From positions 32,001-96,000 of IMG/VR virus record IMGVR_UViG_3300028800_000005: a stretch of DNA of 64,000 nt. One strand, given 5' to 3'. Numbering within the stretch: position 1 is the first letter of the stretch; the number at the start of each line of letters is the position of its first letter. The notes beneath the pieces were generated by a model. That model saw nothing but the letters and a program-made list of their open reading frames with translations, was not told where the DNA came from and did no database searches. Made by a program: the position numbers and the translations under genes. Origin of the DNA: a virus. This document shows, one piece after another, positions 33,330-54,738 of this stretch.

Positions 33330-33713
33330 ATGGTGCTGCATCTCCGTCAGCCTAGTCCGGACCAGTGGCGTAATTCAAAGTGCCTTGGAAAGGTATTCGA
33401 CGAGGACGGGAAGTACCAGGAGGAGCTGGACCCTTTTTTCACCCCCGACCGGGAAGAGGAAGCGGTTGACTTCTGCCGGGGAAAAGATGGGACCCCCTGT
33501 CCTATCATGGAGCAGTGCCTGATATTCGCCCTAGTCAACAACGAAAAATCAGGCGTGTTTGGTGGTACGCCTGAGCTGGATCGCAAGGCCATCCGTAAGA
33601 AGTGGCCACTCCGTCGTGGTAAGGACCCCCGCCCAGAGTGGCAGCTATTCGAACCGGGAGAGCCAGCGAGCTGGTACGCCGACGAGGAGCTAGGGGACGA
33701 TAATGACGATTGA
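33330..33713 (+). CDS. whiB: WhiB-family transcription factor
   Basis: W..SKC..DPFF..C..CP..EQC..AL..GVFGG..R. Confidence 0.85.
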   Translation: MVLHLRQPSPDQWRNSKCLGKVFDEDGKYQEELDPFFTPDREEEAVDFCRGKDGTPCPIMEQCLIFALVNNEKSGVFGGTPELDRKAIRKKWPLRRGKDPRPEWQLFEPGEPASWYADEELGDDNDD

Positions 33714-39698: not shown

Positions 39699-39974
39699 AT
39701 GGAGCGCACTGATGACCTGGTTCTCCGGGTAAAGTCCACAACGCCGGTACCAGACCTGGCGAGTGCGGTGGCACACGGGGTTACTGACGGCAAGCACGTT
39801 ATCATGCGGTGCATCGGCCCGCAGCCTATCTCGCAGGCTACCAAGGCGGTCGCCGTCGCACGCGGGTACGTAGCACCGCGAGGAATTGACCTGGCTTTGA
39901 TACCCGGGTTCATAAACGTTGAGATGCCCGAAGGCACGGTAACCGGAGTAGCATTGAGAGTTGTGGTCCTGTAG
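39699..39974 (+). CDS. spoVS: SpoVS-family (Alba-like fold) protein
   Basis: IG...SQATKAVAVARGYVAPRGIDL..IPGF matches the SpoVS signature NQAVKAVAIARGFVAPSGVDL..IP.F. Confidence 0.88.
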   Translation: MERTDDLVLRVKSTTPVPDLASAVAHGVTDGKHVIMRCIGPQPISQATKAVAVARGYVAPRGIDLALIPGFINVEMPEGTVTGVALRVVVL

Positions 39975-40019: not shown

Positions 40020-41116
40020 ATGATGATGAATCAGCAGCCAGTAGGGAACGGCGGGTTCTCTCCCCAGCAGCCACCGCCATTCCAAAGTCGTGGGCAGGCA
40101 TTTGGCGAAGGAATGGTCGGCGGGCAGTTGTCCGCACCCCCGTCGATGCTTGAGCAGGCCGCGAAGTTTAATGCGCAGGTCCCCCAGACCTACCGACCCA
40201 GCGGTTCCATGAACGGCATGAGCGCCAACCAGTACCAGAATACCCTGGGCGGTCAGTTCCAGAACCCTAACGGTATTTCGCAGGACTACTACCAGACCAA
40301 GCGCTACTTCCCCCAGGGACAGTAATGAGCACTAAGCGGTTCAGTAACCCAGACGGCACGGACTCCCCGGAAACTGGCCATTGGACGATCCAGGAGACCG
40401 CCGCTAACCCCGGGCACGTTGCCGGTGGCGAGGTCTTCCGAACGTACGCGCCGGACCACACGAACACCCCGGCTAACGTCCGGACGTGGACCGTCCAGAG
40501 CAGCATGACCGGGTCAGACCAGAACCTTACCGAGCACACCGGAGCCGTCTCATGAGTTCAGACCCAGTAAAGACTGACTTCCCGGCGATGGGCCTTAACG
40601 GCATCCCGGAGTCGGTCATTAACATGTCCGGCAACCGTTCGCCGTACACCACGCCGCGCCCGAACTCGGGACCGTCTGGTGACTCCATCGACGGCGCTAC
40701 CGGTGGCCCGGCCAAGCACAGCCTGGTGAACGCCGAGGTTCTCGGCCCGGTCTGCGCCCCGCAGACCACGCTGTTCTACCCGAACGCGGCCGACCACGAG
40801 AAGACCGGCCGGAACGTGAAGCTCCTGCCGCCCCGCTCGGGTGCCTCGGACTTCTGGGACAACCGCGCGCAGGGCCCGTACGTCGGCTAACATGCCTCAG
40901 GATAACCAGCAGCAGAATGTCGGAGCGTCGCGGAATGAGAACTTCTACGACGCCTCCGATTCTGCGCGTTCTGGGTTCCTTAACGCCGGGCGAACGCCTA
41001 GCTGGGGACCGCAGACGGCAGGGAACCCGCACGACGGCGGGTACAATCCCTGGCACAGCACCCGCGAGGACATTCCCGACGAGACACCGGACAGCCCCTC
41101 TTCCGACCAGTGGTGA
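40020..41116 (+). CDS. Four small G/P/Q/N-rich proteins (40020-40325, 40325-40555, 40552-40890, 40892-41116); candidate virion-internal proteins
   Basis: Coupled, low-complexity hydrophilic ORFs. Confidence 0.6.
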
Positions 41117-41120
41117 TCAC

Positions 41121-41819
41121 ATGACTGACGAGCGTGGCAAGTGGCCAAACACGCCCGGTGGACGGCGCAGGCAGCGCATCCAGGACGTCCGGGAACAGAT
41201 GCCGCCTGTCTACAACAAGAATGGCGAAGAGAGCTTCGGACGTAGCCGCAGGCGCTTTGAGGGTGCTGTCGCGCGTTCGTCCATGCCTGCCGGTGACCTT
41301 TCGGCCGTCAATGAGGTTCACCTGACGAGGGCTAACCAGTCAGCCCTGGCGCAGTACGATATAAATAGCCGGGACATAGAGATCCCGACACCTAAGGGAC
41401 AGAGCCTGAAGCGGGACACGGCCGAGGACAAGACACTGCTCGCGCATTCTATTGTCCATGAGACCGGGCACGCTATCGACCGGAACCTTAACCCGGAGCA
41501 GTTCTTCCCGATTAAGGACAAGGCTCGATCGGGCCGCCGTGAGGCGGTCGCGGAGAACTACGCGGACAAGCACACACGTGGTTACGGTGGTGAGCCCGGC
41601 GGGAGTTACTCCACCTACGATGCCGCAGTGCAGGCCCACCTGAACAACAAGAGCAGGGGCGGGTACGCACCCATTAAAAAGGACTTCGGGGCGAAGGGCG
41701 TGGAAACGTACCAGGGATTCCGTAAGCTCGGCATGACTCCGTCTGACTCGGCACCGCCAGAGCATGAGGTAAACCAGAAGCTGTCCCAGACGTGGGCACC
41801 GAATAGTAAGTTCGTCTGA
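41121..41819 (+). CDS. HExxH zincin-like metallopeptidase
   Basis: AQY..IEI..HSIVHETGHAID..EAVAE; likely start MTDERGKW. Confidence 0.7.
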   Translation: MTDERGKWPNTPGGRRRQRIQDVREQMPPVYNKNGEESFGRSRRRFEGAVARSSMPAGDLSAVNEVHLTRANQSALAQYDINSRDIEIPTPKGQSLKRDTAEDKTLLAHSIVHETGHAIDRNLNPEQFFPIKDKARSGRREAVAENYADKHTRGYGGEPGGSYSTYDAAVQAHLNNKSRGGYAPIKKDFGAKGVETYQGFRKLGMTPSDSAPPEHEVNQKLSQTWAPNSKFV

Positions 41820-42394
41820 TGGACAGCACCGCTAACTCAAACTGGAGTGTCCAGGCGCAACCTTGGAACGGCAGCGCCGGTAAGATGCTCGGCGGTGGCG
41901 GGGACCCGTCGATGGTAAACCTCGGTACGGGCGCGGCCCGGCTGGACAAGATCCGCATGGGTGCGGGCCAGCTACCGGACGCGCAGTACCCCGACGGCTA
42001 CCTCGGGAACTACCGGAGCAAGAACGAGGGCAAGCTCCAGCAGCGGATGGACGACCGGAGCTACCAGCGAGGCGTCCACAAGTTCGTCAAGATGACCCCT
42101 GACGAGTACCGCTGGCCCTCAGACTTCGGCCCTGACTCGGGCCTGGTGAACCAGGCCAGGACCGCACGGGCTACGGGTGACGGCACGATCCAGACGCGGC
42201 GGTTTGGTTCGACAGGAGACCCTGCCGAGAGGTATCGTGGATACATGCAGGGTGGCCCGATGGTCACCGACCGTGAGATGTCTGAGCTGTACCGGCGCTA
42301 CGGCATCAACGCCGTCACCGGTCAGGGCACGGACCCGGTCGACCCGGCACGCAGGGCCGTAATCTCCAAGATGGCACCCGGACTGAGCTGGTAG
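41819..42394 (+). CDS. Gly-rich hypothetical protein
   Basis: QYPDGYLG..RSYQRGVHK; coupled to the upstream ORF. Confidence 0.65.
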   Translation: MDSTANSNWSVQAQPWNGSAGKMLGGGGDPSMVNLGTGAARLDKIRMGAGQLPDAQYPDGYLGNYRSKNEGKLQQRMDDRSYQRGVHKFVKMTPDEYRWPSDFGPDSGLVNQARTARATGDGTIQTRRFGSTGDPAERYRGYMQGGPMVTDREMSELYRRYGINAVTGQGTDPVDPARRAVISKMAPGLSW

Positions 42395-42402
42395 GGGGAG
42401 AC

Positions 42403-42660
42403 ATGAGCGCAACCGAGAACTTGAACGGAGAGCAGTTCTCTGACTGGGCCCGTAGCGCCCTGGACCCTCAGGGACCTCTGCGCCAGGGACTTCAGGAAGA
42501 GTACGCCCAGCGGGGGCCCCGCATGGAGCGCAAGGTCGCGGGACAGCGCGTGGATAACTACTGCACCGGATGCGGCGTCCACCAGCCCGTGAACCCGGGA
42601 ACCTTCAAGTGCCCGACCTGCACCGACAAGGCATACGACCGCATGTCTGCGAGGATCTGA
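42403..42660 (+). CDS. Zinc-ribbon protein with MSATENLNGEQF leader
   Basis: GGGGAG RBS; CTGC..CPTC. Confidence 0.7.
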   Translation: MSATENLNGEQFSDWARSALDPQGPLRQGLQEEYAQRGPRMERKVAGQRVDNYCTGCGVHQPVNPGTFKCPTCTDKAYDRMSARI

Positions 42661-42962
42661 TGCCCTGGCGACTCCCTGACAGTTTCATCGATGACACGCA
42701 CACCTGGAATAACCACAATGACCAGGTGATGTTCGAGCGTGCATTTGAGACTGAGCCCGGGGAGGAGCAGAAGATGGCATTGTCACTTCTTTGCGCGAAC
42801 CCTGGTACCTCCGAGAAGTTCATCCGGAACACGCTGCAGAACCCGAGCATGACTGATCGTACCGCTCCGTCCTTCCCGCCGCCTACAATTGAAGAAGTAT
42901 TCGCACGCAGTCAGGCCCCCACCGGGGACAATGACATGGCCCGTCAGGCAGGGGCGCATTAA
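42660..42962 (+). CDS. Hypothetical protein
   Basis: MPWRLPDSF..; TGATG/TAATG coupling. Confidence 0.6.
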   Translation: MPWRLPDSFIDDTHTWNNHNDQVMFERAFETEPGEEQKMALSLLCANPGTSEKFIRNTLQNPSMTDRTAPSFPPPTIEEVFARSQAPTGDNDMARQAGAH

Positions 42963-43915
42963 TGCCAAAGAAGCAGCCCGCACCGCAAGATAACCCGAAT
43001 TTCGCGACTCACGTCCAGAACGTCGTGAACTCGGTCAAGTCGGCTACGCCCGCAGAGACCGAGGCCGGGCTGAAGTGGTACCCGGAAGCGCACGCCCAGA
43101 CTCTTGACGTCGCGAAGCGCAATCCCGGGCCGATTGAGGACTACGAGTCCGCCGGGACAATGGACAAGCACGGGGTCGGCGGGAACAACGTCGGTTCAGT
43201 TCACCCGGCCATGGCCCGCGCGGCTGGCGAGGTCGCGGCATTGTCTCCCGCGCGCCCGGCGGGAATGCGATGGGAGCATAACGTCCCGGCAGCCGCTCAG
43301 CTAAAGGACGTCACGCCGGAGCAGCGCGGTTCGATTAATGACGCCCGGTCGATGGCTAAGCGCCAGTCACAGGCAATGGGCGCGCTAAAGTCTGCGAAGA
43401 ACCGTGGCGCTGGCGTTGACGAGGCCCAGGGTAACCTGGACAGGGCCTCCGAGGCGTTCAAGGTCCGCTCCGCGCAGGCGCGTGCCCCGTTCAAGGACAC
43501 GCCACTGGGTCACGCCGGAGTTCACGCGATCGGAAAGGCCCTGGACATCCAGGCTGGTGACGTCCACCCGTACGAGGCGCTCGGTACCGTCAAGGAACGT
43601 CACTTCGCCCATGATCTTTCCCGGCCGCATGACGCGGAAAAGGTTTTCCACGGCGCTAGCGGGACGATTGACGAGCACATGAAGAACGTCATGGAGGGCC
43701 CGGAAGTCAGCCACGGGTGGAAAGAGAGTGCGGCGGCCCTTAGCGTGCCCCGAACTGCCCCCGACCCCGGCACCCAGGGCGGGTACGTGTACGGCAGGTC
43801 CGTCCTGCATGAGGCTGCCCGGCAACTGCGCATGCGACCTAATGCGGCCCAGCCTGTATCCTGGGTACATGAGAAGGCAACAAAGCCACGCACCGGTAAC
43901 CGGGGCACTAAGTAG
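42962..43915 (+). CDS. Phage protein of the G..WY/AALSP/WxxN/TID.H/Q..W family (possibly HhH-GPD-like)
   Basis: GLKWY, AAGEVAALSP, WEHN, KERHF, TIDEH, P.AAQPVSW. Confidence 0.55.
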   Translation: MPKKQPAPQDNPNFATHVQNVVNSVKSATPAETEAGLKWYPEAHAQTLDVAKRNPGPIEDYESAGTMDKHGVGGNNVGSVHPAMARAAGEVAALSPARPAGMRWEHNVPAAAQLKDVTPEQRGSINDARSMAKRQSQAMGALKSAKNRGAGVDEAQGNLDRASEAFKVRSAQARAPFKDTPLGHAGVHAIGKALDIQAGDVHPYEALGTVKERHFAHDLSRPHDAEKVFHGASGTIDEHMKNVMEGPEVSHGWKESAAALSVPRTAPDPGTQGGYVYGRSVLHEAARQLRMRPNAAQPVSWVHEKATKPRTGNRGTK

Positions 43916-43923
43916 GAGTTCAC

Positions 43924-44184
43924 ATGGGACGTCCAGTCAGCAGGAGCTGTAACCGCGAGCTTGCGCAGGGCCTTACCGATGGCTCCTACAAGCAGATCGT
44001 GAAGGACCGTGGCGGCATAGTCGAGTCGTCGACTTACGAGGCGCGCAAGAACCTCAGCGTGCCGCTTTACGGCATCGTGGAGAAGGAAGAGAAGGAACTC
44101 GGGGACGCGGTCGGCCCGGTTCGCACGCCGTACGTCGTCGACAGCCCGAAGCCCGGACTCCTGGTGACCGACCAGGACCGGTAA
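43924..44184 (+). CDS. Hypothetical protein
   Basis: AGGAG RBS. Confidence 0.6.
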   Translation: MGRPVSRSCNRELAQGLTDGSYKQIVKDRGGIVESSTYEARKNLSVPLYGIVEKEEKELGDAVGPVRTPYVVDSPKPGLLVTDQDR

Positions 44185-44186
44185 TT

Positions 44187-44216
44187 TTGACATCGGAGAA
44201 CTAAACGGACTAGCCT
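44187..44216 (+). promoter_or_regulatory. SigA-like promoter
   Basis: TTGACA-N18-TAGCCT; followed by a 54-aa ORF at 44233-44397. Confidence 0.7.
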
Positions 44217-44393
44217 GAAGTCTAGGCATCGAATGGAGCACCACATGATCATCGGCACGGACGTGCACGGGGACGCAGTAGAACTCCCCGTAGAGCTTAG
44301 GGACGAGGGCATCCTCGACTTCGGCTCCGAGCACGCGCTTTGCTGGCACTGGGCCGATGACTTTGTGCTCCGCATTTCTACTGAGGAGCATGA

Positions 44394-44738
44394 ATGACGA
44401 TCGACCGCAAGGTGCAGTATGGAAGCACGGTCACGGCTGTTACCGGACTGGCTACCTGGCTGCTCACGACATACGCATTCCACGGGTCCATGCCGACTGC
44501 GGTTGCCACCGCGCTCCCTGTCCTGATCGCCTCGGTTATCGGCTGGATTACCTCTTACATGACCAAGCAGGCACCGAAGGACGTCGTCCGCGCGGCGGAC
44601 AAGCTCGAATCGGATGCCACCGTGCACCAGATGTCGCTGGCTCTCCTGGCCACGCACACCCCGAACAAGGTCCAGGCACGCGCTTTCCCAAAGGCATACC
44701 CGCCAGTCGGCCCGCAAGCCCCATTCGGGGGACAGTAA
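44394..44738 (+). CDS. Holin-like 2-TM membrane protein
   Basis: KV..ST.TAVTGLATWLL..MP.AVATAL.VLIA.VIGW.T. Confidence 0.6.
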   Translation: MTIDRKVQYGSTVTAVTGLATWLLTTYAFHGSMPTAVATALPVLIASVIGWITSYMTKQAPKDVVRAADKLESDATVHQMSLALLATHTPNKVQARAFPKAYPPVGPQAPFGGQ

Positions 44739-45301
44739 TGGCTGGTAAGCGGGTCCGGATTCTCGTATGTCCCCGGTGTGAGACGGTAGAACCCATTGAA
44801 TGGTGCGCCACCGCTCCCGGCTCGAATCCTGAGTGCGGGCACGCCCAGTGCGCTGACCTCCTGAACTTCAGGGTAATGCCGCACACTGCCGACCTGGCCG
44901 AAGGCAGGGTCTACCACAGTAACCTGCTGCTGACTGACGTCGCGTCCGACGACTGGAACCGGCTGTCGACGCGAAAGAACATCCTGAAGAACTTCACCGC
45001 CCCGGGTGACGCCACGCCTTACGGCGCGGAACTCTACGCGATCAAGGAGAACTACCAGGAATCCGCTATGCAGTGCTGGAAGCAGCATAACCGCACGACA
45101 GACTGCGGTGAATGGCGGCACTCTTCAAAGCGCCTGGTTGACCAGCGTGAGGAGACAAAGGATCTCCGTCGTGAGCTAAAACTGGAGACGCGCTCGAAGC
45201 ACCGGCCGACCATGACCTACCTCTGTGACTTCTGCCCGATGCGGAGCATCAAGGAGACTAAGGTCGACGCAGAGAAGTACGGATTCCAGAGTCCGTACTG
45301 A
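44738..45301 (+). CDS. Cys/His-rich hypothetical protein
   Basis: CPRC, CWKQHNR..C, YLCDFCP. Confidence 0.7.
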   Translation: MAGKRVRILVCPRCETVEPIEWCATAPGSNPECGHAQCADLLNFRVMPHTADLAEGRVYHSNLLLTDVASDDWNRLSTRKNILKNFTAPGDATPYGAELYAIKENYQESAMQCWKQHNRTTDCGEWRHSSKRLVDQREETKDLRRELKLETRSKHRPTMTYLCDFCPMRSIKETKVDAEKYGFQSPY

Positions 45302-45861
45302 TGATCATTACCTGCGGCATGTGCCCGGCGTCTTTCGAGCGAACTTTTTATCGCCGGAAGTACTGTAGTGATGCGTGCGCAGCAGCGGCCATTCGCAGGA
45401 GAGATCGACTCCGGTACCAAAATCCTCCACGCCGGGCGGATTGTAACGCACGCGCCGCCGCGTGGAAGGGCGCTCACCCAGAGACGACGAAGGCGCATAT
45501 GCACTCAAGGCATTTGCTTCGCCGGTACAACCTATCGGTAGAGCAGTACCTAAAGATGCTTGATGACCAGGGTGGGGTTTGTTACACCTGTCATCGAACC
45601 GAGAACGGAGTGCATTACAAACAACTCTCGGTGGACCACGATCACAACTGCTGCCCCGGATCTAGGTCGTGTGGTAAGTGTATCCGCAAGCTACTGTGTC
45701 ATCAGTGCAATAGCATACTTGGTATGTTGGATGAAGATCCAGTGGTGCTCCAGTGTATTGCGGATCGTCTTGACACATTCTTCGGACTCCCAGGTAGTGT
45801 GTTCACATCAATGGCCAATTATGTTCAAGAATATTCAGTAACCCCTACTAGGAGGAACTAG
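45301..45861 (+). CDS. Endonuclease VII-family (homing-like) endonuclease
   Basis: CxxC..YCS.AC; RRYNLS..Y..ML.DQGG.C.TC..LSVDHDH.CC...SCGKCIR.LLC..CN..LG; lower GC than its flanks. Confidence 0.88.
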   Translation: MIITCGMCPASFERTFYRRKYCSDACAAAAIRRRDRLRYQNPPRRADCNARAAAWKGAHPETTKAHMHSRHLLRRYNLSVEQYLKMLDDQGGVCYTCHRTENGVHYKQLSVDHDHNCCPGSRSCGKCIRKLLCHQCNSILGMLDEDPVVLQCIADRLDTFFGLPGSVFTSMANYVQEYSVTPTRRN

Positions 45862-46892
45862 TGCTGTTTACCGAGATCGCACTGGCGATCGTCGCCGCTG
45901 CATTCCTTTTCATCGACGCCCTGTACATTCGGGAGCGCAAGTGGCGTCGTTACACGGAGTACGTCCTGCGCGAGGAGGCCAAGCATCACAACGACATGAT
46001 GTCGGCCCACCTTGACCTTATCACGCGGTACGAGCGAGTCCAGCACGGGTACGACCAGGGTGTCCTGGAGGGAATGCGGCAGGCGTACGTGAACGTCCGC
46101 GCTACACTGGCCGACGAACTCTTTATCACGGGCGGGACAGACGGGGCGAAGCTCCGTGCGTTCGTCCTTCCCTTGCTGGAGAACCTCGGAACTCACGAGA
46201 CCAAGATCCTGGACGAGATGAAGGGGAACACGAAGGCGCGCGAGGCATTCGAGAAGCACGCGGGGAACACCGAGCCAATCAACATGTTCCCGGGCAATAA
46301 CAAGCCGCAGATAGCACAACCAGTGGAGGATAACTGACATGGACATTCCCGAACTCGGACACTCGGCAGCTCGCGCTCGCCAGGAGTCCCCGAAGGCAAT
46401 TCCCGACGAGGACGACATGAGTCCGCTGTCCCCGCTCCCGGACGTCATTCACGCTGACACGGCGTTCCTCGTCTACAAGACCCCAGACGGTCAGGTTATC
46501 CTGACGGCGGACCTGAACACTCCGGTGTCAGTCCGTCGCGGGCCGCTGAACCACGATATCGTCGGGATGTCACACTGCGTCCTTGAGGACATCCGGCTGA
46601 TGGGTTCCGCCCCGGCAATTGCCCAAACGGTCGTGAACGCGGTTAAGCTGGAGCAGCAGCAGCAGATGGAGCAGATGCAGCAGGCCCAGGTTCTCCAGCA
46701 GATCCAGAAGCAGAAGCAGGGGCACCTGTAATGACCAGTGAAGAGATGCACCTGGATAACGCACTCGCGCGACTGCAAAAGGCGCATGTGTACGACGTCA
46801 GCGCCGAGCTGACCTACGGGCAGGCATACCAGCGGCTAGTCCAAATGGGCCTCCGTCCACAGATCCGACGCAAGTACCGAGGGACTAAGTAA
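45861..46892 (+). CDS. Three hypothetical proteins (45861-46337 with N-terminal TM; 46339-46731 with Gln-rich tail; 46731-46892)
   Basis: RBSs and coupling. Confidence 0.65.
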
Positions 46893-47875
46893 TGATCGAC
46901 CCGCGTTTCTTCGAGAAGGCTGCCTCCGGGCAGCCTGCTCCCTCTACGGAGGGAGGTGCCTCCGGGTACTTCTCCCGGCCAGAGCCGATGCTGGACCCTA
47001 ACCTGTTCGAGAACGGGCGCTTGCGTGAGAAGGTGCGCAATCACCTGCTCGGAACGCTGGTTAACTGGCTAGACGAGACTATGGCTGCCCATGAGATGCA
47101 ATCCTGGCTGCATGTCTGGCTGGCTGGCAGCGGCATCAGTTACCAGTGGGCGGCCAGTCGTGGCAACGGTGACCTTGACGTCCTGTTCGGCGTTAACCTC
47201 GGTAAGTTCCAGGCCGCTAACCATGGCTGGGACTGGTCGGAGGCTGAGACAGCCGCCCAGGTAAACGACGGTATGAAGGAAGGACTCTGGCCGTCGACAG
47301 CACAGACCAGGTTCGGCTTCGGTACCTATGAGGTCACGTACTTCTGGAACCCGGGGACCGGAAGTGACATCAAGAAGATCCACCCGTACGCCGCGTACGA
47401 CCTGGTGAAGGACAAGTGGGCAGTACCCCCTCCGCAGCTCCCAGAGATCCCTGGAGAGCTTTACCCCCAGGACTGGTACATCCAGGCCGGGAAAGACTCC
47501 GAGGCCGCCCTGAGGCTCACACGGGCCTTTAACGAGCATATCCAGAAGTACTCGGACGCAATGCCAGGCTCAATGACCCAGCATAACTCCGGAGCGGCCC
47601 TGAACGGCATCGTCGCGGAGGCGAATAACCTATTCACGGACATGCACACCGGACGCCGTGCCGCCTTCAGCGACCAGGGCCAGGGCTACGGCGACTACGC
47701 TAACTTCCGGTGGCAATTCAATAAGTTGAATGGAGCAGTGCAAGCCCTTTCCCAGATAGCAAACGTTGGTAAGGAAGCGCGGCGGCAACAAGAGACGGAG
47801 CAATGGGGAGCGCCCATCGATGGGGCAGAGATCGCGCTCCGTCGGGCAGTACAACAGTACCGAGGTCGTTTGTGA
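46892..47875 (+). CDS. Pol-beta-superfamily nucleotidyltransferase
   Basis: WLAGSGISYQW...GDLDVLF. Confidence 0.8.
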   Translation: MIDPRFFEKAASGQPAPSTEGGASGYFSRPEPMLDPNLFENGRLREKVRNHLLGTLVNWLDETMAAHEMQSWLHVWLAGSGISYQWAASRGNGDLDVLFGVNLGKFQAANHGWDWSEAETAAQVNDGMKEGLWPSTAQTRFGFGTYEVTYFWNPGTGSDIKKIHPYAAYDLVKDKWAVPPPQLPEIPGELYPQDWYIQAGKDSEAALRLTRAFNEHIQKYSDAMPGSMTQHNSGAALNGIVAEANNLFTDMHTGRRAAFSDQGQGYGDYANFRWQFNKLNGAVQALSQIANVGKEARRQQETEQWGAPIDGAEIALRRAVQQYRGRL

Positions 47876-47894
47876 GTGAAGAGGTCTTGCAGGT

Positions 47895-48356
47895 ATGAGG
47901 AAGACATTCGTCATCCCGGTCGAGGGTGTTATTCGCAAGGTAACAGACGGCCAGCCTATTGTGCAGATGGTAGAGCTTATCAGCTCGTTCGCCGGGGAGA
48001 ACACGTTCATCTACCTGACCGACGAGGCTGCCAATGACACCGCTGACTGGCTGAACCTCCACGGCCTTGGGCACACGCTTGTCCTCGGGCGTGATGCTGA
48101 CCGGCTGATGCAGCTTCGCCGTATTCAGCATGAGTGGGGATATAACGTAGACTTCGTTATCGAGCCCGATCCTGAGGTTGTCGCGAAGCTCGTCGAGCAC
48201 GGTTACCCGGTTCTAGCTTTCTTCCACCCGTACTATTCAAAGCGCGAGTGGAGACCAGATTACAAGTTCGAGGTCACCCCCTGGGACGACATCAAGGAAG
48301 GCATCGTGAAGCAGCAGGCAATGCGCGCGAACGACAGCCGCACACGGAGCGAGTAA
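47895..48356 (+). CDS. HAD-like protein (degenerate motif I)
   Basis: FVIPVEGVI, YLT, WL..HGL, FVIEPDP. Confidence 0.6.
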   Translation: MRKTFVIPVEGVIRKVTDGQPIVQMVELISSFAGENTFIYLTDEAANDTADWLNLHGLGHTLVLGRDADRLMQLRRIQHEWGYNVDFVIEPDPEVVAKLVEHGYPVLAFFHPYYSKREWRPDYKFEVTPWDDIKEGIVKQQAMRANDSRTRSE

Positions 48357-49858
48357 TGTTGCTGTACATGGCAGGTGCCGAGAATAACGAGTGGAGGAAC
48401 TTTCTCTCTGACCTCGGTGTCGAGTACGTCTCGATGTCCTTCGTCGGCCTGTCAAAGCGCGTAAAGGGCACGGCGAAGTGGTCGATTGCCTCGCACTTCG
48501 AGGGGCAGCATGTTCTCCTTGACGCTGGCGGGTACTCATTCAACAAGAAGGACTCCACCGCGACCGAGGAAGAGGCGATGGAGACAGCGAACGCTTACAT
48601 GGCGTTCGTCACCCAGAACATTGACGCGGTCGACCTTGTTACTGAGTTCGACGCGAATATACTCGGCCGTGACTGGCTGCTGGCGATGCGAGAGGATTTC
48701 TATGACGACCTCGGGGACAAGTTTTGCCCAGTATGGCATGAAGACACCAGTACAACGGAACTGGAACGACTCGCGAGCCGCTACGCGCATGTGGGAGTCC
48801 TGGCTTCAGGACTTGACGAGCACCTTGTGCCTATACTCAATGGATTGGTATCGCGTTACGGTGTCAAGTTCCACGGTCTAGGCATCACCGCGACAAAGAC
48901 CTCGTTGTGCCAGGCGGTGAAGTGGGACTCGATCGGCTCCAAGAGCTGGATCTCACCGTCCATCGACGGCGATACTATCATCTGGACCGGGCAGGAGCTG
49001 AAGCGCTACCCGGCTAAGCTTAAGGACCAGGCCAGGCGACGCCACAAGAGCTACCTGGAGCGTCAGGGCTTTGACGCCGACAAGATAGTAGGGGACGACC
49101 GCAAGGAGGTTCTACGGCTCTCTGTGTGGTCCTGGCAGCAGTTCATGGAGTCGCTCGCACATGCCAGGGTGTTCAATCCTTTCGGTGGTGGCCCTATCGG
49201 AGTTACTCCCCAGGGTGATAACGGGGATACTGAAAATGAGGAACGGCATGTAGACGGTGTTGATCACCCTGTGCCTGACCCGGGGAACCGTGGGTTGCTC
49301 CCCGCCGTCGTCGAACGACGTGATCCCGTGCTCCTGCCGGTCATGGGAATCGAGGTAATCACCAATAAGTCCGAGGACGAAGATGGTGAGGATTTCGAGG
49401 AGCGGGTCGTAACCACGCCCGCAAAAGCACCCTTGATGCAGTGCAACACATGCCACATCAGGGACAATTGCCCGAAGGCAAAAGCGAACGCTGAGTGTGC
49501 CTACGAGATACCGATCCAGGTAACCTCGAAGAACCAGATGCGCAGGCTTCAGGACGCGCTGATTGAGATGCAATACCAGCGTGCGGCGCGGATGGTGATG
49601 TTCGAGCAGGCCCTTGGCGGATACTCAGACCAGAATGCATCGGCCGAGATAGACAGGCTTCAGAAGCTGATTAACGCCAAGCGTGAGGCAGAGAAGACAG
49701 GCTTCACCCTCCACATGGAGGCACACGACGACAAGGGCGTTGGCGTCATGAGCCGGGTGTTTGGTCGCGACGCGGGCGACGCTGTCACGGCTCTCCCTGA
49801 GGTTGTCGACGCCACACAGTACATTGAAGCCGAGATCGTAAACGAGACGGAAGAGTAA
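48356..49858 (+). CDS. TGT/DpdA-like TIM-barrel protein fused to a Cys4 zinc finger and helical C-terminal domain
   Basis: LYMAG, VLLDAGGYSF, EFD, PVWH, FHGLG, WDSIGSKSW; CNTC..CP..C; helical region ending GVMSRVFG. Confidence 0.6.
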   Translation: MLLYMAGAENNEWRNFLSDLGVEYVSMSFVGLSKRVKGTAKWSIASHFEGQHVLLDAGGYSFNKKDSTATEEEAMETANAYMAFVTQNIDAVDLVTEFDANILGRDWLLAMREDFYDDLGDKFCPVWHEDTSTTELERLASRYAHVGVLASGLDEHLVPILNGLVSRYGVKFHGLGITATKTSLCQAVKWDSIGSKSWISPSIDGDTIIWTGQELKRYPAKLKDQARRRHKSYLERQGFDADKIVGDDRKEVLRLSVWSWQQFMESLAHARVFNPFGGGPIGVTPQGDNGDTENEERHVDGVDHPVPDPGNRGLLPAVVERRDPVLLPVMGIEVITNKSEDEDGEDFEERVVTTPAKAPLMQCNTCHIRDNCPKAKANAECAYEIPIQVTSKNQMRRLQDALIEMQYQRAARMVMFEQALGGYSDQNASAEIDRLQKLINAKREAEKTGFTLHMEAHDDKGVGVMSRVFGRDAGDAVTALPEVVDATQYIEAEIVNETEE

Positions 49859-49867
49859 CTCCCCAAC

Positions 49868-50026
49868 GTGCGTATTCCTAACAACGGTCCCCTGGAGGGC
49901 GAGACTCAGGTCTGCCCCCGCTGCAAGGGCACCGGGTTCACGGACCAGTATGACGAGGACGTCTGCCTTACGTGTCTGGGGGAGGGCGAGGTCCCTGTGC
50001 TCCAGGTCACACGGAAGACACCCTAG
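49868..50026 (+). CDS. Small DnaJ-type zinc-finger protein (not in ORF track)
   Basis: CPRCKGTG..CLTCLGEG. Confidence 0.6.
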   Translation: MRIPNNGPLEGETQVCPRCKGTGFTDQYDEDVCLTCLGEGEVPVLQVTRKTP

Positions 50027-50031
50027 ATCTG

Positions 50032-50061
50032 TTGCCAGCACCCCCATCGGCCGACTAGACT
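50032..50061 (+). promoter_or_regulatory. SigA-like promoter
   Basis: TTGCCA-N18-TAGACT. Confidence 0.65.
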
Positions 50062-50083
50062 GGAGTTGTCGGAAGGGGACACC

Positions 50084-51316
50084 ATGGACACCGCAGTCAC
50101 CACTGAGGCACCAGAAGTGCAGGCCGACCGCTGGCTGTACCGGCTGAACGACCAGGAGCTGGTCGACACCCGCGAGAAGATCGCCAAGATGAACGCACGG
50201 GCTGCCAAGCGCGGCCTGGCTGGTGAGCTGACCGTCTCGGCCGTGAAGGTCCGCCAGACGCGCAAGCTACCGAGCGGCTTCGAGATCACCGAGTCCTGGT
50301 GGGACACTGAGATCCTCGGTGCAGCTCCCCAGTACAACGGGTGGAAGTTCATCGCTAGCCTGGACTTCGACCCGGCTGCTGGCCTGATCACCAAGACGAT
50401 CCCCGGCCTGGCAGGCAAGATCGACCGCAGCAAGCTGCAAGACAACTGGTGTGACCACTGCAAGACCAGCCGGTTCCGTCGACTGGCCTACCTCCTGGAG
50501 AGTGCGACCGGCGAGCGACTGCAAGTCGGCAGCACGTGCATCAAGGACTTCCTCGGCCAGGCGGTGCGTCCCGTGTTCACCAGTGAGGACACCATTCGCG
50601 AGGAGTTCGGCGGCTTCGGTGCCTCTGACTACGACGTCACCCCGCTGGACGTGCTCGCTATCGCGTGGGCCGCAGTTCAGGAGTTCGGTTTCGTCCGCTC
50701 TGGTGACTACGACGACGTCCCGACCAAGCGGCGCATCGATCAGGTTCTGTACCCGGCCAGCAAGGGCCAGGCTGCCATCGACGACCGGGCCCTGGGTGAG
50801 AGGCTCCGTCCGCTGGCTGCCAAGGCTGCCGAGCAGGCCAAGCTGATTCAGTCCTACATCCTCAGCGACGAGTTCAGCGGCGACAGTGAGTACGTTCAGA
50901 ACCTCAAGCAGATCGCCGGGGCCGAGCGGGTCGGCCGGAGGTTCTTCGGTCTCCTCGCTAGCGCGCCGCAGGCGTGGGCCAAGTCGGTCGAGCGGGACCT
51001 GCGCCGCCAGGCCGAGCAGGCTGAGATCAAGAACGAGTTCTTCGGCTACGTCAAGGACAGGATTGAGCTTACCGTCCGCATCAAGTCCATCCGCTACTTC
51101 GATGGAGCCTACGGGACCACCACCTTGTACACCCTGGTTACCGACGACGGTCACCTGGCGCAATGGTGGGCATCCAATTCCGCACTGGGAAATGAGGTCA
51201 CCAATCACAGCTACCTAGTCAAGGCCACGATCAAGGGCCACGAAGATTACCAGGACACCAAGTACACAAAGCTCACGCGGGTCACTGTCCTAGAAGACAT
51301 CCCCGGAGAGGAGTAA
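50084..51316 (+). CDS. Conserved-type phage protein with zinc finger and C-terminal OB-fold
   Basis: CDHC..R.R..QVGSTCIKDFLG; FG..K.R.E..YG..W..S..V.ATIK.H..Y...T.L.R. Confidence 0.7.
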   Translation: MDTAVTTEAPEVQADRWLYRLNDQELVDTREKIAKMNARAAKRGLAGELTVSAVKVRQTRKLPSGFEITESWWDTEILGAAPQYNGWKFIASLDFDPAAGLITKTIPGLAGKIDRSKLQDNWCDHCKTSRFRRLAYLLESATGERLQVGSTCIKDFLGQAVRPVFTSEDTIREEFGGFGASDYDVTPLDVLAIAWAAVQEFGFVRSGDYDDVPTKRRIDQVLYPASKGQAAIDDRALGERLRPLAAKAAEQAKLIQSYILSDEFSGDSEYVQNLKQIAGAERVGRRFFGLLASAPQAWAKSVERDLRRQAEQAEIKNEFFGYVKDRIELTVRIKSIRYFDGAYGTTTLYTLVTDDGHLAQWWASNSALGNEVTNHSYLVKATIKGHEDYQDTKYTKLTRVTVLEDIPGEE

Positions 51317-51557
51317 GAATGCAGGCAGCACAGCCAGACAGCCGGTACGCTTACCGGCTAGTCTGCGGAGACATAGGCCTTGGTTCAAAGGACCTATCGG
51401 AGCACGACCACCTGTTTTGCGCAGTTCACCGGAATTATGAGCGCATCGCAGGGTTCGGCATCAGGTGGAGCAGGCTCCAGGCTGAAGCCGCAAGTGAGAG
51501 TGCCAGTGTTGTCTAGGTAGGAGGTGATCCTCTATCTCCCCTGTCGGAGGGGTAATT

Positions 51558-51587
51558 TCGACAACACGATCCGGTCCCCGGTATACT
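51558..51587 (+). promoter_or_regulatory. SigA-like promoter
   Basis: TCGACA-N18-TATACT. Confidence 0.65.
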
Positions 51588-51614
51588 GGGGATCGGATCA
51601 TTTATTGGAGGAAC

Positions 51615-51845
51615 ATGGACGTCAACGACTACATCAGGGGCCTTTCGGACCAGGATCTGAAGAAGGAGATCCGCCGTCGTAACGAAGAGGTCGCGCGTGA
51701 GGCCCGTGAGTGGATGGAACGGGAGTACCGGGAGCGGCAGGCTGTACGGGCCGGTGCCAGGTCTGAGTTCTGCGCGGCACAGGGTATCACACCGGAGCAG
51801 TTCGAGGCCGTCGAAGACTACCTGGACGAAGAAGCGAATTCGTAA
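51615..51845 (+). CDS. Small hypothetical protein
   Basis: GGAGG RBS. Confidence 0.7.
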   Translation: MDVNDYIRGLSDQDLKKEIRRRNEEVAREAREWMEREYRERQAVRAGARSEFCAAQGITPEQFEAVEDYLDEEANS

Positions 51846-52396
51846 TGCTCTCTGACCTACCGCAGCCAGGAACAATCGGGCTAACTGCGATCGACGGCCA
51901 GGTCGGCAAGGCAATTCACTTCCTGCAATGGCTGAATGAGAACCCGTTCAAGAACTGGTTCAAGAAGAACACCGACCCGAACTATGAGCATGTCGTGCTC
52001 TACCTCGGCGCGACGAAAGAATACCCTGAGGGTGCACTGCTTGAGGCTGAGCCCGGCGGCTCAAGGATTCGCTCGGTAGAGGAATACTCGGAGATCTACT
52101 GGTGCACGCGCATCGCGTGGAAGTTCTACAAGGCACTGCCCCTGATCGCGAACGAGGCTAAGCGTGACACCGGCATCCCGTACTCGTTCCTTGACTACCT
52201 GGCGCTTACGCTCCGGCGAATGCACTTCTGGTTCCCAGGGATGCGCAGGTATCTCAAGGCCATTGGGCACCAGATCTGCTCCCAGCTAGCTGTCTGGGAG
52301 TACGAGAAGCACGGCTGTTACCTGTTCCCACACGAGTGGGCCGGGGATGAAACGCCGATGGATATCTACTACCTGGATCAGAAACTAGGAAAGTAA
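51845..52396 (+). CDS. Permuted papain-like (NlpC/P60, YiiX-type) amidase
   Basis: YEHVVLYLG..LEAEPGG..GIPY..ICSQL..TP.D. Confidence 0.8.
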   Translation: MLSDLPQPGTIGLTAIDGQVGKAIHFLQWLNENPFKNWFKKNTDPNYEHVVLYLGATKEYPEGALLEAEPGGSRIRSVEEYSEIYWCTRIAWKFYKALPLIANEAKRDTGIPYSFLDYLALTLRRMHFWFPGMRRYLKAIGHQICSQLAVWEYEKHGCYLFPHEWAGDETPMDIYYLDQKLGK

Positions 52397-53056
52397 TGGC
52401 ACTACTCGATTACAAGCCGCAGGGCAAGGGCACACTGGGAAGCTACGTCCGCTTCGCCCCTGGGGAGATCGACCACGCCGTCGATGCCCCGGGGCTTGGC
52501 GTCATCACATATTACGGGACCAGGCGACGAGGTGAGTACGTCGACATCACGGCCGATAACATGAAGGCTATAGAGCTTGTCCCTGGCATGGAGGCCGAGC
52601 AGGATAACGGCAAGGCCCAGACGTTGTCACGAATGCCCAAGGATTTCTCGCAGGAGCAGCGTGAGGTTACCTGGTACGCACTTCTGGGAGGCCGACGTGC
52701 CAGGCACTGAGCAGGCGCAAGGGTGGGGCATGGGCGCGTACGCGATGTGGGGTGCGAGCGCGTTTACTAAGCATAGTCTCATGGCTGATGTTACCCCCAG
52801 CGCGTCTAGCCCGGGGCTGCGTGAGATCTACTGCTGGCAGTGCGGGACGCTGGCCCTTAGGACGTACTCGTACCAGACGACGTACACCTGCAAGGTCTGT
52901 GAATGCTCAGGCAAGCTGACTCCAGATGAAGGGCGGAAGTCGTTCACTGACCCGAGGACGACCAATATGTTCCGTGGGGTGACGACGGTGACTCACGAAC
53001 GGTACCTGGACTTCGGTGACCCTGAGGTGTCCAGGATGAACGGCAGCCCGGCTTGA
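52396..53056 (+). CDS. Two hypothetical proteins (52396-52710; 52697-53056 with zinc finger)
   Basis: Coupling; CWQC..CKVC. Confidence 0.6.
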
Positions 53057-53066
53057 CCCACCTTAC

Positions 53067-53099
53067 AACCCCCTCTGTACGGCCCAGAGGGGGTTTTTT
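53067..53099 (+). terminator. Rho-independent terminator
   Basis: AACCCCCTCTG-tacggcc-CAGAGGGGGTT followed by a T-run. Confidence 0.88.
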
Positions 53100-53113
53100 C
53101 ATGCCCTCTTATT

Positions 53114-53144
53114 TTGCGTTCAGCAGGACGCGGGCGGGTATGAT
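53114..53144 (+). promoter_or_regulatory. Promoter for a probably leaderless transcript opening the ART operon
   Basis: TTGCGT-N19-TATGAT, 6 nt before ATG 53151. Confidence 0.55.
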
Positions 53145-53150
53145 TGTGGT

Positions 53151-53378
53151 ATGCCCATAGACGTCGACTGGTCCCACCGGCACCACATGGTCAAGTGCCC
53201 TGTGTGCCACGTGCTGCACTGTGCTTGCCAGTGCCCGCGTGACCGCTGGCGCTACGACATTGTTGTCCGCCGGGCGGCTGACGGGCTGATGTACTGGGAC
53301 GCTAGCGAGCACGCCTGGTGCAAGGTCATAGGCTCGAAGCACGAATCCGACTGGAGGCAGCACATTGAGCGCAACTGA
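53151..53378 (+). CDS. Cys/His-rich small protein
   Basis: CPVCHVLHCACQC. Confidence 0.6.
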   Translation: MPIDVDWSHRHHMVKCPVCHVLHCACQCPRDRWRYDIVVRRAADGLMYWDASEHAWCKVIGSKHESDWRQHIERN

Positions 53379-53568
53379 GGTACTAAGTTCCCTTCAGTTC
53401 AAGAGGCACCCCGTGAGGGCCGCAGCGCAACGTGTGCACGCTGCTGAGAAGCACGCGGCTGGTCGCCTCGGCCACGGTGTCGACCGGGCGCTAGACGCCC
53501 TTGAGGGCCCGCATGACCCAGGGAACTGGAACGATCACCCGGATGACATCGGGGAGATCACACCGTGA
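53365..53568 (+). CDS. Small protein with MSATEVLSSLQF leader
   Basis: GGAGG RBS, TTG start; followed by a 55-aa ORF at 53565-53732. Confidence 0.6.
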   Translation: MSATEVLSSLQFKRHPVRAAAQRVHAAEKHAAGRLGHGVDRALDALEGPHDPGNWNDHPDDIGEITP

Positions 53569-53728
53569 CTGAGGATCGTGACCAGGCGGCCCTGACCCTG
53601 CTGAAGATGATGTCCGAGCTGAACTTCGACCAGATAGCGTTCCTCGTCGGTTACATGACTATCAAGGACATCGACCTCGCAGCCAGGGCAATGACAGCAC
53701 TCCAGTTCACCGACGTCGGGCAGGTCAA

Positions 53729-54103
53729 ATGAGCGCACAAGAGAATTTGAATCCTCAGCAGTTCTATCATGGTTCTAACCAGGAGTTCAAGCCAGGTGAC
53801 ATGCTGACTCCTGCGGGCGGTAAAGCCCACGCTGACTCCTGGGATAACAAGGATTACTCGCCGGGAGAGTACGTCCACACGACGCTTGACCCAGGGACGG
53901 CACATCTTGTCGCGGGGCGAAAGAACGATTACGAAGGGCTAGGTCACGTCTACACGGTAGAGCATACCGGCCCGGTAGAAGAGGACAAGTCGATGAACGC
54001 CGACATGCAGTCCGCCGGAGCGAGGAACTTCCGCACCAAGAGCCCTGTACGTGTCACCGGGGAAGATCATGACTGGTGGGAACGCCAGCAGAGGGGCGTG
54101 TAA
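53729..54103 (+). CDS. Arr-like ADP-ribosyltransferase 1
   Basis: FYHGS..F.PGD.L.P..VHTT..VY.VE.TGPVEED..FRT..PVRV.GE. Confidence 0.8.
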   Translation: MSAQENLNPQQFYHGSNQEFKPGDMLTPAGGKAHADSWDNKDYSPGEYVHTTLDPGTAHLVAGRKNDYEGLGHVYTVEHTGPVEEDKSMNADMQSAGARNFRTKSPVRVTGEDHDWWERQQRGV

Positions 54104-54381
54104 TGGCAGCCACAGATAACCTGAATCCCCACCAGTTCTACCACGGGTCGGACCATAAGTTCGGCCGAGGGGCAATGGTGAAGCCAGGGCATGCCCCGCT
54201 GAATTCACCGTCCCCTGAGGAGCACGCTTACTTCGCGCGGACGCCGGAAGAGGCAGAGGGATACGGAAGGTACGTCCATGCGGTAAACCCGACAGGGGAC
54301 TACGAGGACGACCCTAACGCACAGGGGGCACTGCGCTCACGTGATCCCCTGCGCGTCCGGTATACCCACTCGACGTCCTAA
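54103..54381 (+). CDS. Arr-like ADP-ribosyltransferase 2
   Basis: FYHGS..V.PG..HAYF..V.PTG.YEDDPN..RSRDPLRV. Confidence 0.82.
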   Translation: MAATDNLNPHQFYHGSDHKFGRGAMVKPGHAPLNSPSPEEHAYFARTPEEAEGYGRYVHAVNPTGDYEDDPNAQGALRSRDPLRVRYTHSTS

Positions 54382-54738
54382 ATGAATTCGGGAGTGTAAT
54401 GGCAGCGCAAGATAACCTGAATAAGAAGCAGTTCTACCACGGTACTAGCGCTGCCCTGAAGCCTGGCGATTACCTGTCTCCCAAGGGCGCTAATGAGTTC
54501 GGCAGGCATGAGACGGAGAGCGGGAGAAGCCACGTCTACGCAACACTCGATGAGGACACAGCGTGGGGGTACGCCATAGACCATGCAGGGTCCGTCGACC
54601 GGGCTCACGTCTACCAGGTTCAGCCAACGGGGAAGACAGAGCCCGACCCGAATGCCGGTGAGTACCCGGCTATAAGGACACGCGCTCGCATGAAGGTCAC
54701 ACGGGAACTGGCCTACTAGCGCTAAATGAATTCGGGAG
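54378..54738. repeat. 17-bp exact direct repeat flanking ART gene 3
   Basis: CTAAATGAATTCGGGAG at 54378-54394 and 54722-54738. Confidence 0.9.
54399..54719 (+). CDS. Arr-like ADP-ribosyltransferase 3
   Basis: FYHGTSAALKPGD.L..HVYAT..A.GYA..VY.V.PTG..E.DPN..RT. Confidence 0.85.
   Translation: MAAQDNLNKKQFYHGTSAALKPGDYLSPKGANEFGRHETESGRSHVYATLDEDTAWGYAIDHAGSVDRAHVYQVQPTGKTEPDPNAGEYPAIRTRARMKVTRELAY

Follow-up and report, generated by a model that had tools for sequence, protein, structure and literature searches.

We analysed a window of 64,000 bp, bases 32001-96000 of a 112,017-bp IMG/VR virus record (IMGVR_UViG_3300028800_000005), the 108-bp terminal repeat of which suggests a circularly closed assembly. 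Nearly all genes of this 112-kb phage lie on the plus strand, among them five open reading frames (ORFs) of the window whose products share one N-terminus, M[SA]A-x-[ED]-N-L-[NS]-x-x-Q-F, referred to here as the leader. An initial annotation of this DNA had singled out these ORFs and read the leader as a portable tag for loading effectors into the virion or for their cleavage; all five were recovered with this N-terminus. No description of the leader was found in the literature searched. Positions are those of the window unless given as genome positions.

Carriers of the leader

The five carriers in the window are all encoded on the plus strand. The first (42403-42660) specifies an 85-residue protein whose leader, MSATENLNGEQF (42403-42438), precedes a body with a zinc-ribbon-like CxxC...CxxC C-terminus; this body is unrelated to the ADP-ribosyltransferases (ARTs) that bear the leader further along, and it gave only weak zinc-ribbon matches in Pfam (E 0.03-0.36). 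The second (53365-53568) has a TTG start with GGAGG 7 nt upstream and encodes a 67-residue protein of no known fold, with a partly degenerate leader, MSATEVLSSLQF (53365-53400). Because its orthologue in a relative of 112,412 bp (P0030) begins with the leader, as MSAIENISPEQF, and keeps the C-terminal half, ORF 53365 is evidently a real gene, the leader of which is visibly decaying relative to that of the orthologue. Three tandem genes encode Arr-like ARTs of 124 residues (53729-54103; leader MSAQENLNPQQF, 53729-53764), 92 residues (54103-54381; leader MAATDNLNPHQF, 54103-54138) and 106 residues (54399-54719; leader MAAQDNLNKKQF, 54399-54434). They match Pfam Arr-ms at E 3.5e-11, 24.7 bits and E 1e-12, respectively, the first two from residue 12, and these matches, together with a structural match of the third protein described below, uphold their earlier reading as Arr-like.

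The longest direct repeat shared by the three tandem ART genes is the leader DNA. A different local repeat, AAAT[GT]AATT[CT]GGG with a G-run, is present in five copies between 54378 and 55243 and nowhere else in the genome. Its first copy lies just 5' of the start of the third ART gene and the others in a stretch of ~1.2 kb without convincing ORFs past the ART array; these repeats may be regulatory sites or what is left of cassette junctions.

Across the whole genome there are at least 11 carriers, six of them Arr-like ARTs and five with unrelated bodies. The others comprise Arr-like genes at genome positions 148, 106037 and 106537, non-Arr genes at 106866 and 111684, and a gene at 102780, where the motif lies 20 residues in if an upstream ATG is used. 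The gene at genome 148-531 starts with a GTG that overlaps the upstream stop codon, and its motif lies 13 residues in; it shares with an Arr-like gene of a related contig (L048:9550-9930) a conserved 13-residue extension, MSERYNQ[WF]L..RG, before the leader, so the leader need not sit at the very end of a protein.

The pattern [ED][NVH][LMV][NS]..QF occurs nine times in the predicted proteome, whereas residue-shuffled proteomes gave 0.0145 on average. In six-frame translation every match falls on the coding strand, within a predicted gene and no more than 25 residues from the likely start. When the leaders were stripped off, the six ART bodies were mutually related (E 1e-11 to 1e-3) and the other five matched nothing (E > 0.09), which bears out the claim that the bodies of 42403 and 53365 are unrelated to each other and to the ARTs.

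The core of the motif, NLNPEQF, also occurs internally at 41484-41504, as had been noted, five residues after HETGH in a 232-residue HExxH protein (gene at about 41121-41819, plus strand). The only homologue found for this protein (P0026; 75% identical) keeps the motif, as DRNLNPEQFFP. The HExxH protein matched no Pfam family and had no relatives on viral contigs, and its AlphaFold2 model (predicted local distance difference test, pLDDT, 40) is unusable as a fold model. Just upstream of this gene, of a gene for a 'QYPDGYLG' protein (41819-42394) and of the tagged zinc-ribbon gene, several small ORFs that overlap or are tightly packed (40020-41116) encode low-complexity proteins rich in Q, N, G and P. 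This module is kept in two relatives of low guanine-cytosine (GC) content (G001 and G007), where some of its members start ...S.QF.

Structure of the leader and the ART bodies

The Pfam Arr-ms model begins exactly at F12, so that leader residues 1-11 fall outside it. Five of the six ART bodies exceed the 25-bit cut-off of this family (PF12120), the gene at 54103 standing at 24.7 bits. In the AlphaFold2 model of the 54399 protein (pLDDT 82), residues 1-11 are coil with a mean pLDDT of 54 and strand 1 starts at F12; the leader is apparently a disordered N-terminal tail ahead of that strand. The best Foldseek matches of this model are the Arr structures 9IAF and 2HW2 (E 1e-7, template modelling score 0.72). 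The NAD-binding histidine of the [FY][YF]HG[TS] strand, H14, is invariant across 18 Arr-like sequences. The phage ARTs are 92-127 residues long, plus one of 166, compared with 143-151 for solved Arr enzymes.

Conservation at the peptide level

The leader is under purifying selection at the amino-acid level. Among 39 distinct leaders from 18 contigs (39-64% GC), A3, N6, Q11 and F12 are nearly fixed, yet Ala3 uses all four of its codons and Leu7 seven codons; synonymous sites are thus free where residues are held, and the earlier suggestion of conservation at the peptide level is confirmed on this larger set. Mean column identity across the 18 Arr-like phage sequences is 23%, and yet A3 and L7 of their leaders are at least 90% conserved.

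Two features of codon use were also seen. Of 26 serines at codon 2, 23 are encoded by AGC, even where the genome has only ~40-45% GC, and serine at leader position 8 is always TCN. These features hint that the nucleotide sequence just past the start codon is constrained and that there are two old leader subtypes, NLN and NLS.

The leader beyond this genome

A degenerate DNA pattern of the leader was used on viral contigs, on 596 Gb of bacterial genomes and on metagenomes. Viral contigs gave 17 matches, 16 of which are real; all 16 stand at ORF starts, ahead of diverse bodies, on contigs of 39-64% GC. The bacterial genomes gave only eight, mostly internal to long ORFs and none heading a body of the phage-clade kind, and these look like chance. 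Of 33 metagenome matches, ~18 are real; the other ~15, as well as L011/G004, were rejected as chance. Furthermore, a leader-only profile run against 1.84 billion representative proteins returned 16 significant matches, 15 of them real, all from residue 1 and in proteins of 66-166 residues.

On related viral and metagenome contigs (39-67% GC) the small proteins that begin with the leader are Arr-like, GNAT, zinc-ribbon and others, and in low-GC genomes seven to ten tagged genes at a time form tandem arrays. The GNAT bodies exceed the curated cut-off of Acetyltransf_1 (L012:3614, 30.7 bits; L039:13135, 32.8 bits; P0031, 27.9 bits), and GNAT carriers are Pfam-confirmed in both the high-GC and the low-GC branches. 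In the orthologous operon of the 112-kb relative, different tagged bodies occupy the same slots, which means that the cassettes turn over. With non-Arr carriers far above chance and recurring across the clade, the idea of a portable tag on unrelated proteins stands. Some carriers can be labelled only by guesses from motifs, without model support: R-S-E-type ARTs ([FY]RG...HW[ST]), ParB/Srx-like proteins (GxHR) and the zinc ribbons. The supposed R-S-E-type and ParB/Srx-like carriers had no Pfam or PDB-sequence match, and for the g111684 family the ESM Atlas gave unnamed viral clusters only.

Origin in cellular Arr enzymes

A match of the first leader profile, P0015, is a full-length canonical Arr that starts MAATDDLSSQRF. 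Its 119 closest homologues are mostly double-domain proteins of ~240 residues, and 40 of the 119 have exactly 11 residues before [FYL][YF]HG, with the consensus M-A-A-T-D-D-L-[RS]-S-Q-[RQ]-F; eight fit the phage spacing. Several P0015 homologues carry NCBI names that assign them to cyanobacteria, their contigs reaching 7.4 Mb, and the leader-like N-terminus is found on cellular Arr from cyanobacteria and other bacteria of distant phyla. Within this cellular branch, conservation of the N-terminal segment does not exceed that of the remaining protein, and the N-termini of the solved Arr-ms and Arr-2 are different.

The leader is therefore the native N-terminus of one branch of the Arr-family ADP-ribosyltransferases, and its presence on the phage ARTs, being homologous, is a matter of family inheritance. 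The cellular branch (PF12120) has MAATDDLxSQxF directly before YHGT, equal in length and position to the phage leader. It differs in that the segment occurs only on Arr bodies, whereas the phage clade has it on unrelated folds, as their best-conserved part. The new part is this transfer onto non-Arr bodies, where the peptide is held more tightly than the bodies themselves. The initial annotation had foreseen that the motif might be an ordinary part of Arr N-termini with its other matches at chance frequency; the former holds for one Arr branch, but the non-Arr carriers are far too frequent for the latter.

The phage and its clade

Structural genes occupy genome 0.6-47 kb and include the large terminase (genome 2780), the portal (genome 13964) and the major head protein (genome 16544); homologue comparisons also placed sheath-like, tube-like and tape-measure-sized genes in the phage. 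The high-GC contigs with the leader have structural genes in common with it. Low-GC contigs share with it the terminase (51-53% identical), the portal (48%), the capsid protein (55%) and the 293-residue scaffold candidate (31%), and also the 'QYPDGYLG' protein and a proteasome-like gene; their members were found on contigs of 87-101 kb. The clade is one of actinobacterial myovirus-like phages of roughly 100 kb.

The description of the phage as an actinophage is supported by its WhiB-family protein (33330-33713; Pfam E 6e-10), its Mpa-type ATPase ending in GQYL and nearest terminases in Streptomyces phages. WhiB genes point to actinobacterial hosts; the one of this phage is Pfam-confirmed, and the counterpart in G006 is a BLAST homologue of it only. 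Among further genes of the window, that at 39699-39974 encodes a SpoVS-family protein (Pfam E 2e-21); the product of 45301-45861 has a recombination endonuclease VII domain (Pfam E 1e-16) and additional clusters of cysteines near its N-terminus. Scans of the window for tRNAs and Rfam families were empty.

A DNA search and three protein queries found no close relatives among GenBank phages. An Arr match in 'Acinetobacter phage MD-2021a' was rejected as a relative, being an integron resistance cassette. By terminase, the closest isolates are the Streptomyces phage BRock group and Bacillus phage BCD7; these were rejected as carriers, as they are without the leader and their single recurring loose motif match lies internal to a gene.

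Discussion

The leader looks like a shared N-terminal address peptide on variable phage effectors, one whose documented origin, a family of cellular enzymes, is unusual, and its reader can be given only as inferred candidates. As a short linear recognition motif it may be read by one shared partner, by which a changing set of cassettes would all be handled alike. The single most likely use of the tag, itself a tentative choice, is loading into the virion. Tagged proteins would then be loaded into the procapsid and delivered with the DNA, in the manner of the capsid-targeting sequence (CTS) of phage T4, though here probably without cleavage by a prohead protease. The T4 CTS, an N-terminal peptide of 10 residues, is common to internal proteins that otherwise diverge, and it suffices for the loading of foreign proteins (PMC9026906). 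Gene order in relatives of our phage is consistent with such a use, as tagged genes lie inside the virion-gene block, directly after the major capsid gene (L009, L015, L067) or between homologues of the tail-region genes g22587 and g24967 (L006, L007, L017, L020). Tagged genes also stand just upstream of the terminase region (g111684, g148, L048, L049), and the arrays of low-GC relatives lie upstream of the lysis, terminase, portal and capsid genes, in the same orientation as these. In a contextual analysis, ARTs adjoining head genes were read as packaged in the head, especially in myoviruses (PMC9503650).

Several observations weigh against virion loading. Most carriers of this genome are found at 72-107 kb of it, amid small non-structural genes. 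The initial annotation had proposed, as support, an enrichment of the motif at the termini of diverse small enzymes, scaffold or capsid proteins; the scan of the genome and its relatives did find it enriched at the N-termini of diverse small proteins, but no structural protein carries it, the portal, scaffold and capsid proteins of this genome included. Nor is the motif always terminal, as the extension of g148 and the internal copy of the HExxH protein show, and the tag was not found in cultured relatives. The complete genome gave no match to Peptidase_S78 (HK97-type) or Peptidase_Prp, the controls for which did match, and the major capsid protein is without a long propeptide. Capsid loading is moreover impossible as a role on cellular Arr enzymes, so that it would have to be an exaptation in the phages. 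Peptidase_S77 (T4-type) had no match in the genome either, but its control was likewise unmatched. The protein between portal and capsid had no family match, and other peptidases encoded are an A4 peptidase, a proteasome-like protein and two HExxH proteins. Promoters gave no decision between early and late expression, a sigma-70 scan being not above shuffles and a k-mer enrichment in 61 intergenic gaps giving no phage promoter motif.

The tag might instead be a handle for the phage's own proteolysis machinery, by which potentially toxic take-over enzymes are removed, trimmed or activated at a set time, a use that we consider somewhat unlikely. The peptide would be read by a proteasome-beta/HslV-like Ntn-hydrolase, to which the high-GC branch adds an Mpa/ARC-type unfoldase able to dock onto the host 20S particle. 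The candidate reader in this phage (32341-32982, plus strand) is encoded within the replication block and has Thr1 and Asp17 in place and a lysine near position 33 (counted from Met27). In six low-GC relatives (G003, G006, G007, L012, L071, L080) homologues of it lie 1-3 kb from the leader arrays, that of G003 matching Pfam Proteasome at E 1e-4. The proteasome-beta homologue is absent from BRock-type phages, and it, Arr and the ATPase are absent from all four complete leader-less relatives. Two tagged genes lie directly upstream of the 505-residue Mpa/ARC-type ATPase (genome 598-2115; L004:598-2112), which starts with a coiled-coil-like segment, has AAA and both proteasomal OB domains and ends in GQYL; a Peptidase_A4 (eqolisin-family) protein (genome 2112-2717) is encoded between it and the large terminase. 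AAA+ unfoldases typically engage unstructured ends, and an unstructured end of 11 residues fits such engagement; on cellular Arr, too, the peptide would be plausible as a degron. Synteny is, however, weak evidence where phages are concerned, endolysin and cupin genes intervene between array and protease, and the co-occurrence may reflect merely shared clade ancestry. Five low-GC fragments (together ~1.7 genome equivalents) yielded neither the ATPase nor the A4 peptidase, and the two were rejected as universal partners for this reason. We also know of no precedent for a phage that tags its own effectors for its own protease. Taken to its full form, in which the Ntn-hydrolase of the clade, with the Mpa-type unfoldase in the high-GC branch, reads the 12-mer in a phage-run sorting that destroys effectors or cuts them active at a set time, with the HExxH protein co-regulated, the proposal becomes slightly less likely again. 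Phage proteasome homologues have been described as a group without an assigned function (PMC8665760).

The leader-like N-terminus on cellular Arr of distant phyla means that its reader there is not a phage part, and it lends some weight to the rather improbable alternative that the peptide binds a conserved bacterial factor, perhaps already on cellular Arr, so that phages bring ARTs, GNATs and other modifying enzymes to the same host target. The carriers are mostly small modifying enzymes, of kinds that phages use on host machinery, and the motif can stand behind a short N-terminal extension or within a protein, which docking motifs also tolerate. No candidate host partner was identified, though, the solved Arr enzymes have a different N-terminus, and a cellular N-terminus no better conserved than the rest fits an integral segment of the enzyme equally well. 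It is also conceivable, with a probability that we put lowest of the four and that leaves a little for other readings, that the peptide has no function outside the ARTs and that new genes were fused in frame to a resident Arr start, keeping its ribosome-binding site and first codons, with leaders persisting through recent origin, gene conversion or effects on expression. The established Arr origin of the leader, the tandem, translationally coupled arrays with their rapid cassette turnover, the direct repeat formed by leader DNA among the tandem ARTs, the AGC bias at codon 2 and the decaying leader of 53365 would all accord with this. Set against it are residues that are held while synonymous sites vary, on non-Arr bodies too, and the far better conservation of the phage-ART leader than of the catalytic body. 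GNAT carriers keep NL[NS]xxQF in two deep branches whose terminases are only ~53% identical, and it is hard to see how at least eight different bodies would have acquired the leader in the absence of selection.

Among known systems, the leader would seem most like the T4 CTS in its working. Both are peptides of 10-12 residues at the extreme N-terminus of otherwise divergent small proteins, encoded at variable loci of a contractile-tailed phage; here, too, one phage has a short N-terminal peptide common to unrelated proteins (11 carriers), and the ARTs among them recall the ADP-ribosyltransferase Alt of the T4 loaded set. The two peptides have no sequence resemblance, however. T4 carriers are cut by the prohead protease gp21, whereas no prohead protease was recognised here and T4-type cleavage appears to be without support; T4 loading was shown experimentally, whereas the present leader is known from sequences alone and is found on cellular enzymes as well. 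Polyvalent proteins and MuF-fused effectors (PMC5512222, PMC9503650) bring together the same kinds of domains, ART and zincin peptidase among them, as predicted first-line injected effectors. A protein of the anti-restriction type, with ArdC-N and MPTase-PolyVal domains, is encoded at genome 107877-108827 (L003:11877-12824), 0.7 kb downstream of the tagged cluster at 106037-107174. Polyvalent proteins join two to fifteen effector domains in one giant polypeptide, and others are fused to the head protein MuF; the carriers, by contrast, are separate small ORFs of 43-176 residues with their own starts and tag copies, and no MuF was seen.

Encapsulin cargo-loading peptides are short conserved terminal peptides that address diverse enzymes into an HK97-fold shell; unlike the leader they are usually C-terminal, and they differ in sequence and serve a cellular nanocompartment rather than a virion. 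The protease Prp cleaves an N-terminal extension of ribosomal protein L27 and of the capsid and scaffold proteins of staphylococcal phage 80alpha. That extension is likewise a short N-terminal peptide on cellular and phage proteins, loosely similar in LN..QF; its spacing is different, this genome has no Peptidase_Prp, and actinobacterial L27 is without the cleaved extension. In the Pup-Mpa-proteasome system a disordered tag is read by an Mpa-type unfoldase, and the phage encodes such an ATPase with a GQYL docking tail. Pup, however, has ~64 residues, ends in GGQ/GGE and is ligated post-translationally through its C-terminus to lysines, whereas the leader is a genetically encoded N-terminus of 12 residues. 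Resemblances to beta-clamp, PIP-box, Prp-site and TEV-like motifs were rejected by eye, with wrong spacing and non-conserved key positions.

The link to Arr raises the question of what role a conserved N-terminus has in the cellular enzymes. If new genes did arise by fusion to a resident start, the tandem arrays would offer a clear case of genes built from the beginning of another. The leader is, furthermore, a concrete substrate candidate for the phage proteasome homologues and the Mpa-type ATPase. If it is an address label, it would provide a 12-residue handle for capsid cargo loading or for the timed removal of proteins in Actinobacteria. It would also make all of the changeable effectors in an uncultured clade of actinophages recognisable without any need for homology, and any small ORF starting with the leader would be a candidate take-over or counter-defence protein.

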